Of a stretch of 29,184 nucleotides of DNA, positions 504-25,019 are shown in pieces (position 1 is the first letter of the stretch; every line of letters starts with the position of its first letter). The notes below the pieces were generated by a model, which had not been told where the DNA came from, made no database searches, and was given only the letters and a program-made list of their open reading frames with translations. This DNA is from a virus. The DNA is taken from positions 1 through 29,184 of IMG/VR virus record IMGVR_UViG_3300022230_000138; one strand, 5' to 3'. The position numbers and the translations under genes were made by a program.

Positions 504-633
504 GTTTTTCACCTCTCATTCTTTCCTTTTTCTTTGTGTGTGGGGGTTGTGTGGTGTTCCCCCCTGTTTTCTTTTTCTGTTTCTTTTTGCATATATTTTT
601 TTTGTTCCGGTCTTCGTGGGATGGGTTTATATG
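489..633 (-). promoter_or_regulatory. Left early promoter/leader module
   Basis: On the minus strand: CATATAAA (633-626), AATATATG (597-590), CAAAAAGAAACAGAAA (589-574), G6...C5 stem, purine tract, GAGGTGA RBS and ATGACATGGGAAGAAA. Mirrored at 24524-24720 on the plus strand. Confidence 0.55.
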
Positions 634-736
634 TGTCGGGGCCCATATAGATTCTCATGGGGGTCTTGGGGTGTTGCGCGGCTGCTTTTTTTCGGGGTTT
701 GTGGTGGTCCCCTCGTCTGCAGTCTGGTCTCTCCAT
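509..736 (-). CDS. Possible small basic hypothetical protein (75 aa)
   Basis: GGAGGTGA RBS 4 nt before ATG 736; the TGA stop lies inside the RBS of the next gene. It is low-complexity and overlaps the regulatory module, so it may be non-coding. Confidence 0.3.
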   Translation of the reverse strand: MERPDCRRGDHHKPRKKAAAQHPKTPMRIYMGPDTYKPIPRRPEQKKYMQKETEKENRGEHHTTPTHKEKGKNER

Positions 737-836
737 GGTGTCACCTCCCATCGGGCTATCTGATGAGAGCCGCGCGATCCCCCCACCACTCTTTTTTGTC
801 CCATGTCATTCTTTTTTTCCCTCTTTTTTGTGGGGG

Positions 837-865
837 TCCTGGAAGTCATCCTGGAAGTCATCCTG
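837..865. repeat. 12-bp tandem repeat TCCTGGAAGTCA x2.4
   Basis: Copies at 837-848 and 849-860, partial copy at 861-865, in the divergent intergenic region. Confidence 0.9.
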
Positions 866-894
866 CAGGTGTGTGGATGGGGGTAGTGTCCACG

Positions 895-902
895 CATATA
901 TG
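895..902. promoter_or_regulatory. Palindromic TATA-like element CATATATG between the divergent operons
   Basis: The only AT-rich octamer immediately upstream of the rightward block; usable on either strand. Confidence 0.3.
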
Positions 903-916
903 TGAGGAGGGTCTCA

Positions 917-1387
917 GTGCCGTATTCTCGGCGTAAGGTTTGTGTGCGTTGCGGGGACCTCCTCCCCCCGTCCCGGAGGAAGTATTGTCCTGTCTGTGCT
1001 GTCCTGGTGAGGCGGGAGCAGAAGCGGGAGTATCAGAGGCGCTATCGTAGGATGATGCGTGGTCTTGGCCGTGAGGGTTTGGGTGAGGGCAGGTTGGGGC
1101 CTCATCGGAATCCTGATCCTCGTGTGGAGGCTGGGGTGGTTCGTCGGGAGCTTCGCAGGCTTCTTAGGCGTTCTAGTAGTGGTTTTCGGGGTTCTCAAGT
1201 GTCCCCGGGGCCATTGGCGATTCCTCCTCCTCTTCGGGGTTCATGTCCTGAGTGTTTTTCGGATCAGGTTGTCTGGGATCCGCTTCGGCGGGAGTTCTCG
1301 TGTCAGGAGTGTGGTTTGGTCCTTTCAGGGTCGTATGAGTATTCTGCGGGTGTCCGGGTTGATTTCCCGTGGGGTTTGGTTATTTAA
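917..1387 (+). CDS. Double zinc-finger protein with a C-terminal TFB/TFIIB-type zinc ribbon; putative transcription regulator
   Basis: N-terminal C-x2-C-x11-C-x2-C (941-997) followed by an Arg-rich helix. C-terminal CPEC-x15-CQEC-GLVL containing WDPLRREF (1244-1324). GAGGAGG RBS favours GTG 917 over 902. Confidence 0.85.
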   Translation: MPYSRRKVCVRCGDLLPPSRRKYCPVCAVLVRREQKREYQRRYRRMMRGLGREGLGEGRLGPHRNPDPRVEAGVVRRELRRLLRRSSSGFRGSQVSPGPLAIPPPLRGSCPECFSDQVVWDPLRREFSCQECGLVLSGSYEYSAGVRVDFPWGLVI

Positions 1388-1407
1388 GGCTTTTTTGAGG
1401 TGATGAT

Positions 1408-4022: not shown

Positions 4023-5406
<1,384 letters not shown>

Positions 5407-23566: not shown

Positions 23567-24501
23567 TGGAGGCTGAGAATATGAAGCTGGAGAAAGGAAT
23601 CGTCACGAACCAGGTCTTCAAGGACATGCAACGCCGATACAACCTATTCAAGAAAGAGAACAACCGTGAACCAAAAATAATCTTCATAGAGCCTGGTAAA
23701 AAGGAATATGTGACCCTAGAGACCTTCAAGGACATGGAGAAACGATATGAGAACTTCAAGAAGGAGAGGGGTCGTGAACCCCTCACAGTCCAAATCACAC
23801 CCCCAGAGAAGGAGGCGGTGAATCTAGAGAAAGGAATCATCACAAATCAGGTTTTTAAGGACATGCAGCGCCGATACAACCTCTTCAAGAAGGAGAACGG
23901 TCGCGAACCCCAAATAATCTACATAGAACCTAATAAAAAAGAATACGTGACCATAGAGACCTTCAAGGACATGGAGAGGAGATATGAGAACTTCAAGAAG
24001 GAGAGGGGTCGTGAACCCCTCACAGTCCAGATCACACCACCAGGGAAGGTCAAGGAGGCTGAGAAGCGCAGTGAAACCCTTCAAGCCCTCATAGATGAAC
24101 TAGGATACTTTAGCAACGCAACAGAACTCTACAAGCTCCTCACGGCGAAGGGGAAGTACAAATACTACTTGAACCGGCGATGCGGGACACTACGCGAAGC
24201 CGTACGGCGAATCAAGAAAGAAGGGATAAACTGTGCTGATGCCTGCACCCTCTTCACCGTCATCCTCCGCGAGATCGGGTACACAGTCCAGGTGGAGCAT
24301 GTCAGGGTCAAGTGTAATGATGGTGTGTGGTACGGTCACTACCTCCTCCGAGTGAAGGGCAGAGAATTCCCGAACACGTCAACGAACCCCTCACAGTGGA
24401 CTATATGGGATTATGTGAGCGCAACGAAGACGAAGCGGCCATTAGGGACACCGTGCTGCGTGGCTGGCTTCAAGCATCTGGATTGGGATGGTGTGAAGTG
24501 A
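23563..24501 (+). CDS. peiP: Pseudomurein endoisopeptidase (PeiP/PeiW-like endolysin); alternative start 23581
   Basis: Four FKDM.RY..FK.E.GREP pseudomurein-binding repeats. Catalytic GINCADAC (Cys 24232), HVRVKCNDGVWYGHY (His 24337) and WDYVSATKT.RPLG.PCC (Asp 24409), as in PeiW/PeiP. Confidence 0.97.
   Translation: MMEAENMKLEKGIVTNQVFKDMQRRYNLFKKENNREPKIIFIEPGKKEYVTLETFKDMEKRYENFKKERGREPLTVQITPPEKEAVNLEKGIITNQVFKDMQRRYNLFKKENGREPQIIYIEPNKKEYVTIETFKDMERRYENFKKERGREPLTVQITPPGKVKEAEKRSETLQALIDELGYFSNATELYKLLTAKGKYKYYLNRRCGTLREAVRRIKKEGINCADACTLFTVILREIGYTVQVEHVRVKCNDGVWYGHYLLRVKGREFPNTSTNPSQWTIWDYVSATKTKRPLGTPCCVAGFKHLDWDGVK
23587..24049 (+). repeat. 237-bp internal tandem duplication (two pairs of pseudomurein-binding repeats)
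   Basis: Units start at 23587 and 23824; long identical runs such as GATATGAGAACTTCAAGAAGGAGAGGGGTCGTGAACCCCTCACAGTCCA. Confidence 0.95.
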
Positions 24502-24523: not shown

Positions 24524-24704
24524 TCAAAAACAAACAGAAAGGCATATAAAGGATAATCAAAAACAAACCGAAAATCCTAGGAAGAATCCTGAACAAAAAC
24601 AAAAAAGGATGGTGGGGGAACATCACCCCCCACACCCAGAGACCACCAAAAAAAGGAAAGAAGAAAAAGGAAAGGAGAAAAGGAAAGGAGAAGAGGTGAA
24701 ACAG
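24524..24704 (+). promoter_or_regulatory. Right early promoter/leader module with repeated operator-like sites
   Basis: TCAAAAACAAAC(A/C)GAAA at 24524 and 24557 flank CATATAAA (24543-24550); third CAAAAACAAA at 24594; G5/C5 stem; 49-nt purine-only tract 24648-24696; GAGGTGA RBS. Confidence 0.6.
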
Positions 24705-25019
24705 ATGGCATGGGAAGAAATACGAGTAGAAACCCAGAAAGAAGCCAAACCATGGGACTACCACGAAAAGGTGAGCCTAGAAGGCTACGTGGAGCTGAAA
24801 AAGGAGAACACGGATCACGAGGGGAGAAAATACCTCACAGTGATCCTGAAAACACATGAGGGGGAACGATACTTCCTCCCACGCAACGTCGACCTCCAAC
24901 TAAAACTAAAAGACGTGGAGGAGGGTGATAAGCTCCACATACGCCACGCAGGAGAAGAAGAACTCCCCGACGGCCGAACAATCCGCCGATTCAAAGTCTA
25001 CAGGTGGATAGAGGCATGA
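24705..25019 (+). CDS. OB-fold protein, putative ssDNA-binding protein (104 aa)
   Basis: RBS supports ATG 24705, not 24609. W...SLEGY...Y.VIL....GE...L..N.DL...L..V..GD...I...G pattern; lies near erf. Confidence 0.65.
   Translation: MAWEEIRVETQKEAKPWDYHEKVSLEGYVELKKENTDHEGRKYLTVILKTHEGERYFLPRNVDLQLKLKDVEEGDKLHIRHAGEEELPDGRTIRRFKVYRWIEA

Follow-up and report, generated by a model that had tools for sequence, protein, structure and literature searches.

What does a virus gain from the zinc ribbon of the archaeal transcription factor TFB when the rest of that factor is missing? The question is raised by IMG/VR record IMGVR_UViG_3300022230_000138, analysed here as one window of 29,184 nucleotides that comprises the entire record and is judged 81% complete. 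Its ribbon gene (P0001) encodes a protein of two zinc modules, an N-terminal knuckle with helices and a C-terminal ribbon of the TFIIB/TFB type. The ribbon belongs to a known domain family, and the protein that carries it is not a TFB. Its role is tentatively explained, at slightly less than an even chance, as that of an RNA-polymerase-docking regulator of late transcription, analogous to TFB3 of Sulfolobus. A preliminary description, made from the nucleotide sequence alone, had read the gene as a TFB-like ribbon without B-reader and cyclin folds, joined to a second Cys4 finger and an Arg-rich helix, and placed first in the rightward block of a methanogen virus. All of this is borne out by the searches, models and alignments presented below.

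A TFB ribbon without the rest of TFB

The ligands of the C-terminal ribbon are spaced C110-x2-C113-x15-C129-x2-C132 and accompanied by a D-P-x-R-x-E signature. The sequence opens with C110-P-E-C113 and, after fifteen residues, closes with C129-Q-E-C132-G-L-V-L. The archaeal TFB ribbon (1pft) has the same C-x2-C-x15-C-x2-C spacing, the same D-P-x-R-x-E...C-x2-C-G-x-V pattern and the same three-stranded fold. Pfam family PF08271 (Zn_Ribbon_TF, the TFIIB zinc-binding ribbon) matches residues 110-136 with 30.9 bits (E 1.9e-7; gathering cut-off 29 bits), aligned to profile positions 3-29 of 43. The C-terminal piece scores 33.9 bits, and a six-frame search of the record finds a single PF08271 match, the ribbon gene itself (1241-1324, 33.4 bits). 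The runner-up Pfam family is ribosomal eS27, to which the protein does not belong (Pfam 21.5 bits vs a cut-off of 24.5; NCBIfam 16 bits vs 70). By its score, cysteine spacing and three-stranded ribbon the protein is a member of the PF08271 domain family.

Searches of solved structures agree with this assignment. A family profile of the C-module, i.e. the ribbon with its tail, was compared with all PDB sequences and finds the P. furiosus TFB ribbon 1pft as best match (E 3.6e-8, 36.5 bits), followed by eS27 (22.5 bits, E 8e-4), human TFIIB (19.4 bits) and Brf2 (19.3 bits). A profile of the whole family ranks the PDB matches in the same order. The preliminary description had named best profile hits to unrelated ribbon families as the outcome that would speak against it; the archaeal TFB ribbon is the best hit instead. 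By hand count the viral and the P. furiosus ribbon share 12 of 27 core residues and have identical cysteine spacing. The AF2 monomer has a mean predicted local distance difference test (pLDDT) value of 66, with 72-80 in the ribbon, and forms a three-stranded ribbon with strands at 118-138. The top PDB rows of a Foldseek search with this fold are 1pft, Brf1 and the yeast and human TFIIB ribbons, with a root-mean-square deviation of 1.3-1.5 Å over 31-33 residues and 33-39% identity. With so small a domain, the E-values are weak, 0.02 at best.

The other parts of TFB are absent. Only 20 residues follow the ribbon, and both the Pfam and the 1pft alignment end with it, without B-reader and B-linker. 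The two cyclin repeats (PF00382), the part of TFB that binds TBP and BRE, have no match at E <= 1 in the 156-residue protein, and the NCBIfam TFIIB model reaches 16.9 bits vs a cut-off of 384. The first 45 positions of this model are the best NCBIfam match of three family members, far under the full-length cut-off. The viral protein possesses the PF08271 ribbon and lacks B-reader, B-linker and cyclin folds; it is therefore not a TFB. Unlike in TFB, the ribbon is C-terminal and a Y-x-A-G...P-W-G tail takes the place of B-reader, B-linker and cyclin repeats. The C-module consensus reads C-P-E-C-x-S...D-x2-R-x-E-x2-C-x2-C-G-L-V-L, followed by the tail consensus S-G-x3-Y-x-A-G-x2-[IV]-x-[YF]-P-W-G; the hidden Markov model alignment to 1pft ends before the tail.

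The N-terminal module and the viral family

The N-module consensus consists of a knuckle, C-x2-C...(K)YC-x2-3-C/H, a basic helix, the loop G-x-x-L-G-x-H-R-N-x-D and a second helix with conserved Glu. Among the knuckle ligands C9 and C12 are invariant in the family, C24 is nearly so, and the fourth is Cys or His; in the window protein C9, C12, C24 and C27 precede a modelled Arg- and Lys-rich helix. A model of the N-module from 30 sequences (pLDDT 78) contains the zinc knuckle, a helix at 25-49, the loop and a helix at 68-89. The linker between the two modules has about 20 residues here and up to about 70 in relatives. An HNH-like catalytic role of the H-R-N-x-D loop was rejected, since the modelled helix-loop-helix lacks the beta-beta-alpha metal fold.

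The same type of finger with a basic helix occurs three times ahead of an HNH nuclease in P0033. The profile of the NinG N-terminus is recognised in 4 of 30 members (best E 5.8e-5) and in PhiF3 ORF6 (E 0.008); the window protein is not matched at E <= 0.01, and a nuclease domain is absent. This sharing of the finger with NinG and HNH proteins suggests that the N-module binds nucleic acid. Atlas feature and shape searches with the N-module return only generic zinc-knuckle-plus-helix rows (Cys_rich_VLP, recombinase zinc ribbon, HNH).

Close homologues of the ribbon protein (87-92% identity) are found only in a few metagenomes, and distant family members have 23-45% identity. Searches with the single protein find no match in 185,579 genomes and one close contig among viruses. 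Among 1.84 billion representatives, searched exhaustively with phmmer, there are 51 hits, which are either two-module proteins, proteins of ribbon and tail only (70-125 amino acids) or proteins of the N-module only. No true TFB is among the 51, so the viral family appears as an old separate lineage and not as a recent copy of a host TFB. PF08271 matches 34 of 34 C-module sequences. Longer proteins with a fused ribbon did not turn up in a dedicated search, a negative of little weight. With three members as tblastn queries, 50,697 phage records yielded PhiF3 and vir080, a virus of Methanobacteriales from the human gut; there were also weak matches (E 0.5-0.6) to a haloarchaeal virus, to MSTV1 and to one Streptococcus phage. 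As judged from these searches, the family is rare and known only from metagenomes and archaeal viruses, and its restriction to hosts with a TFB-dependent polymerase fits a role in transcription.

A true homologue in a cultivated virus is ORF6 of the Methanobacterium virus PhiF3 (QGZ14583.1; 45% identity over 42 amino acids), with the same N-finger, basic helix and ribbon. It has 139 amino acids, scores 44.4 bits with PF08271 and lacks the H-R-N-x-D loop and the second helix. GenBank annotates it as a hypothetical protein with a TF_Zn_ribbon motif; no published function was found for it in the literature. The modules are fused in the window protein, in PhiF3 ORF6 and in P0005-P0009. On contig L031 a small ribbon gene separates the gene of the N-module from that of the C-module, and in vir080 the two modules are separate genes directly next to each other. 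Fusion in some genomes and adjacency in others make a good case for a joint function of the modules.

The gene or gene pair lies after the replication/early genes and before terminase in five distinct virus lineages: as the first late-block gene in the window virus, three genes before TerL in PhiF3, five genes before TerL in vir080, between the early block and TerL on the 46-kb contig L037, and on L032, which ends just past the gene. Many bacterial siphoviruses possess a late-gene regulator just before their late/terminase genes. Bacterial phage late regulators such as lambda Q, P2 Ogr and RinA/ArpU are small, often zinc-binding proteins that bind polymerase and lie at the early/late boundary; they target the bacterial polymerase and sigma, and have no sequence or fold relation to the viral ribbon protein.

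The finger type and the neighbourhood of the gene would also fit a nucleic-acid-binding zinc protein outside transcription, an accessory of packaging, recombination or a nuclease, with a ribbon that is TFB-like by common descent of small C4 ribbons. We consider this unlikely, though a serious rival. The N-finger type does recur in NinG and HNH nuclease proteins, both terminase genes, small and large, are close by, ribbons of the PF08271 and eS27-like kinds are widespread, bacteria included, and the structure searches with the N-module give generic matches only. However, a catalytic domain is absent, in the profile search the archaeal TFB ribbon leads all other solved ribbon classes by 14 bits, and the family is hardly seen among tens of thousands of bacterial phages with otherwise similar packaging genes.

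Several relatives carry further ribbons. In the larger members P0009, P0019, P0025, P0058 and P0060 the middle carries a conserved motif, L-T-H-N-Y-A-x-F-N-D-Y, and the C-terminus a third zinc ribbon, C-K-K-C...C-x2-C-G-S...G-I-C-x-P, so that the modularity of the family extends beyond two parts. Just upstream of the PhiF3 ribbon gene (L007, 3946-5648), ORF4 and ORF5 are CxxC-rich and annotated as redox proteins; they have weak matches to the double zinc ribbons DZR and DZR_2 and to DUF7573 and, instead of redox enzymes, may be additional zinc-ribbon proteins. The Methanobrevibacter smithii virus MSTV1 (L036, PP537965) has a 42-residue open reading frame (ORF) at 4118-4246, about 1.1 kb before its small terminase gene, that is mostly a C-x2-C...C-x2-C-G-L-V-I ribbon, with a start MKHAEIECPVC just upstream in another frame. 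It could be a minimal relative of the C-module.

Predicted polymerase docking and a proposed role in late transcription

A structure prediction with the polymerase dock, proposed as a check in the preliminary description, was made with the C-module (60 amino acids with alignment) and M. thermautotrophicus RPO1N_METTH 1-520 plus RPO2C_METTH 260-600. The median score is 0.58 (runs 0.01, 0.58 and 0.63), and the best control has 0.01. Between runs at least 39% of contacts are shared, and the partner has a pLDDT of at least 46. Of 80 solved complexes 58 attain the mark that this score passes, as do 2 of 110 mismatched pairs, and scores of 0.60 or under among those reaching it belong to only 7 of the 80 solved complexes and to both mismatches. 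One of the runs stays at 0.01, and the pass may restate likeness only, because complexes of the TFIIB ribbon with Pol II are already solved and the score may reflect memory of them. The predicted docking of the ribbon on RNA polymerase lends weak support, a small increment only.

As a docking regulator, the virus-specific two-module factor would act on the host archaeal RNA polymerase. The ribbon of the C-module would occupy the polymerase dock next to the RNA exit channel, and its tail would perhaps reach toward this channel; the dock is the site that host TFB uses to recruit RNA polymerase. The N-module would bind nucleic acid (DNA or RNA) or the TBP-TFB-promoter complex, and the modules together would bring or hold the polymerase at the viral late operon in a TFB3-like manner. 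For the direction of the effect, activation is favoured over inhibition. The observed part of this case consists of the domain identities, the fused and split forms of the family, the restriction to archaeal viruses and the placement between early genes and terminase.

The nearest functional model is TFB3 of Sulfolobus/Sulfolobales, a UV-induced truncated TFB paralogue that activates in trans with TBP and TFB1 at promoters and requires both its ribbon and its coiled coil to do so (PMC6101594). Like TFB3, the viral protein joins a TFB ribbon to a helical module without the DNA-binding cyclin/helix-turn-helix core. Unlike the cellular TFB3, with its N-terminal ribbon and C-terminal coiled coil, the viral protein carries its modules in the opposite order and has in addition a zinc knuckle and the H-R-N-x-D loop. 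No kinship of the viral protein to TFB3 was detected beyond the ribbon, and the architectures are not homologous.

The same ribbon evidence and the same weak complex prediction would equally serve a host shut-off, in which the ribbon occupies the dock, blocks the recruitment of host TFB and inhibits initiation globally. From the mechanism of TFIIB, a ribbon without B-reader and B-linker cannot open DNA and alone should compete (PMC7111264). Viral and cellular inhibitors of the archaeal polymerase are known (PMC9501531), and the outcome would be comparable to that of ATV RIP or TFS4. A shut-off is nevertheless quite improbable. Lacking its own polymerase, the virus depends on host initiation for the late operon of about 23 kb that the ribbon gene heads; the conserved second module and the tail are not needed for simple competition; and the gene is placed among the late genes and not among the earliest ones.

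The head of the late operon is rich in T runs. Oligo-T is the archaeal intrinsic termination signal. On the coding strand six runs of at least five T occur in 917-2300 vs three in 2300-24500, and base composition accounts by our estimate for about 7-fold of the roughly 30-fold excess. Ten further runs of at least five T, up to T8, are present in 505-829, and none on the minus strand of 1-2539. The excess may point to regulated termination or merely to a local G/T strand bias.

These runs bear on a role in antitermination or processivity, i.e. a protein bound by the RNA exit channel, with its Arg-rich helix on nascent RNA, that allows read-through of oligo-T. It would be an archaeal analogue of lambda N or Q, which are placed likewise relative to the operon under their control. 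A T6 run directly past the stop codon of the ribbon gene (1391-1396), the T-run excess at the operon head and a late block that is nearly gap-free over about 23 kb are in line with such a factor. To our knowledge no factor of this kind is known in archaea. The T runs may merely follow the strand bias, and an RNA element is missing, with nothing in Rfam and a leader fold of z -0.53. A dock-bound TFIIB-type ribbon moreover clashes with RNA longer than 12-13 nucleotides (PMC7111264). As a whole, antitermination is very improbable.

Several points weigh against the favoured docking regulator. The ribbon is C-terminal, unlike the N-terminal ribbon of TFB and TFB3, and the tail after it is unlike a B-reader. 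Ribbons of the eS27 type are the second-best class in the profile searches, and PF08271 scores over its cut-off in 8 of 14 control genomes, bacteria among them, so the ribbon fold is no proof of polymerase binding. DNA binding by the N-module is a guess, because a search of solved folds gave no significant structural relative (best Z 3.7). The missing cellular TFB among the exhaustive phmmer hits belongs here too. A dock-bound ribbon would be a competitor of host TFB, a factor on which the virus itself should depend. The repeat and the palindrome upstream of the gene (below) are not above chance elsewhere in the window, and no shared promoter motif could be defined. Finally, psiM2 and psiM100 have no counterpart of the gene, which is thus not essential to the psiM2/PhiF3-like group.

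A wider claim is possible, if doubtful: that tailed viruses of Methanobacteriales carry a dedicated late factor, a dock-capturing TFB ribbon plus a zinc-helical specificity module in one or two proteins, which would be the first ribbon-only viral TFB-like factor and the first early-to-late switch or antitermination device described in an archaeal tailed virus. Its zinc-helical module would supply specificity for promoter, preinitiation complex or RNA, and the switch or antitermination would act on the oligo-T-rich head of the 23-kb operon.

The ribbon domain, the flagged PhiF3 homologue, the truncated TFB3 and full-length viral TFBs (in rudiviruses; PMC9501531) are already known. Known viral factors on the archaeal RNA polymerase, RIP and full-length viral TFBs, are from crenarchaeal viruses (PMC9501531). 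The vTFB of Italian rudiviruses is a TFB with all its parts, RIP, a paralogue of a capsid protein, plugs the DNA channel, and TFS4 enters the nucleoside triphosphate channel; ATV RIP and TFS4 both act on the archaeal RNA polymerase (PMC9501531). All three are likewise virus- or infection-linked polymerase factors or TFB mimics, and none is ribbon-only. In the literature no description was found of an archaeal-virus family with a C-terminal TFB-type ribbon and conserved tail, of the pairing of such a ribbon, fused or split, with a second conserved zinc-helical module, or of the fixed position of the family at the early/late boundary. A docking regulator, if real, would be a simple tool for probing the dock and RNA-exit region of the Pol II-like archaeal enzyme. 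It would also test naturally to what extent a ribbon by itself can recruit or block polymerase, and offer a candidate switch for engineering methanogen viruses and expression systems. PhiF3, with its homologue, and the host Methanothermobacter thermautotrophicus are cultivated and form a testable system.

The locus, its upstream region and the virus

The features of the locus are listed in Table 1. The ribbon gene starts with GTG at 917 and stops at 1385-1387; gene callers pick the same GTG start on four related contigs, and pairwise dN/dS among close relatives is 0.22-0.65 (small counts). It is the first gene of the rightward block, preceded by a minus-strand neighbour and the non-coding 513-916, and followed by plus-strand genes that run nearly gap-free as far as the endolysin at 24501.

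Table 1. Features of the ribbon gene and its surroundings (positions in the window)
Feature	Position	Strand	Basis or remark
Divergent control region, non-coding	513-916	.	between leftward early gene (129-512, minus) and ribbon gene
Shine-Dalgarno AGGAGG	905-910	+	6 nucleotides 5' of GTG start; kept in 5 of 6 relatives (alignment)
Ribbon gene (P0001)	917-1387	+	two-module zinc protein, 156 amino acids; ORF read from sequence
N-terminal zinc knuckle C9, C12, C24, C27	941-997	+	family alignment; weak DZR_2 match, E 0.0025
Long Arg/Lys-rich helix, residues 25-52	989-1072	+	AF2 models, pLDDT 87-96 here
Conserved loop G-x-x-L-G-x-H-R-N-x-D, residues 56-67	1082-1117	+	alignment; G56, H63 invariant
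Second helix, residues 68-87, conserved E71 and E78	1118-1177	+	alignment and AF2 models
Variable linker, residues 88-109, probably disordered	1178-1243	+	pLDDT <50 at residues 86-101
TFB-type zinc ribbon, residues 110-136	1244-1324	+	PF08271, 1pft profile match, model, superposition
C-terminal tail, family-specific	1325-1384	+	kept in most of 34 C-module sequences; pLDDT <50 in monomer
T6 run	1391-1396	+	between stop codon and next gene's ribosome-binding site; T5-T6 in five relatives

The T6 run after the stop codon is a possible candidate for an oligo-T pause or termination signal; the five relatives that keep it as T5-T6 are too close to prove constraint. Upstream of the gene, 513-916 is non-coding because indels of 2, 4, 7 and 23 nucleotides among relatives of about 90% identity (alignment of six relatives) break the frame. 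For the same reason, ORFs at 502-936 and 657-905 (plus strand) and at 509-751 and 655-897 (minus strand) were rejected. The region contains TATA-like boxes at about 590-600, 628-636 and 646-654 and many T runs, an exact tandem 12-bp repeat (TCCTGGAAGTCA, twice at 837-860, with a degenerate third copy after it) and a near-palindromic TATA-like CGCATATATGTG at 893-904 that abuts the ribosome-binding site of the ribbon gene. Repeat and palindrome are kept in relatives and are candidate operator sites. The palindrome was rejected as promoter of the ribbon gene, since transcription starting about 25 nucleotides further on would already begin within the ORF. The leader was suspected of containing a hammerhead-like CTGATGAG, and Rfam found nothing there. 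Folding of the RNA of 655-916 (z -0.53) gives no sign of structure. A promoter scan of the upstream region returned nothing; its model is bacterial and not relevant to archaea.

The start region of the leftward early gene (TCCCATGTCAT...), at 484-523, is repeated within the intergenic region at 790-829 with 73% identity, 306 nucleotides apart. In relatives, the counterpart of about 488-528 forms a 41-bp inverted repeat of 90% identity with the head of the right early operon (24680-24720). This likeness agrees with homologous early promoter-leader modules.

The gene content is that of a tailed virus, with small and large terminase, Mu-type portal, Mu-F, capsid, tail tube, tape measure and Dit genes, a pseudomurein endoisopeptidase (Pei; Peptidase_C71 with PMBR repeats) and then an ERF recombinase and a helicase-like protein. 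TerL shares 54% identity with its psiM2/psiM100 counterpart and 46% with that of PhiF3; it matches 1,233 phage records, mostly bacterial. On these sequence grounds the virus is classed as a psiM2/PhiF3-like tailed virus. As it carries Pei, its host is a pseudomurein-walled methanogen, most likely Methanothermobacter or a relative. Megablast of 25 kb against phage records gave no match, and a TerL scan of genomes returned no Methanobacteriota genome.

A related JGI contig (L002, 3882-8671) joins the window end (29179) to the window start via about 4.8 kb, which makes the genome about 34 kb and circular or permuted. These 4.8 kb outside the window contain three small plus-strand genes and the first part of a five-gene leftward block. 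One gene of this block (349 amino acids) has a weak match to tRNA-guanine transglycosylase (PF01702) and could serve 7-deazaguanine DNA modification.

Two small genes lie between the ribbon gene and the small terminase, 1408-1659 (83 amino acids, hydrophobic) and 1686-2012 (108 amino acids, with a coiled coil, a C-terminal hydrophobic stretch and a weak XhlA match of E 6.5e-5, under the cut-off). They may be holin-like lysis genes, 22 kb away from the Pei endolysin.

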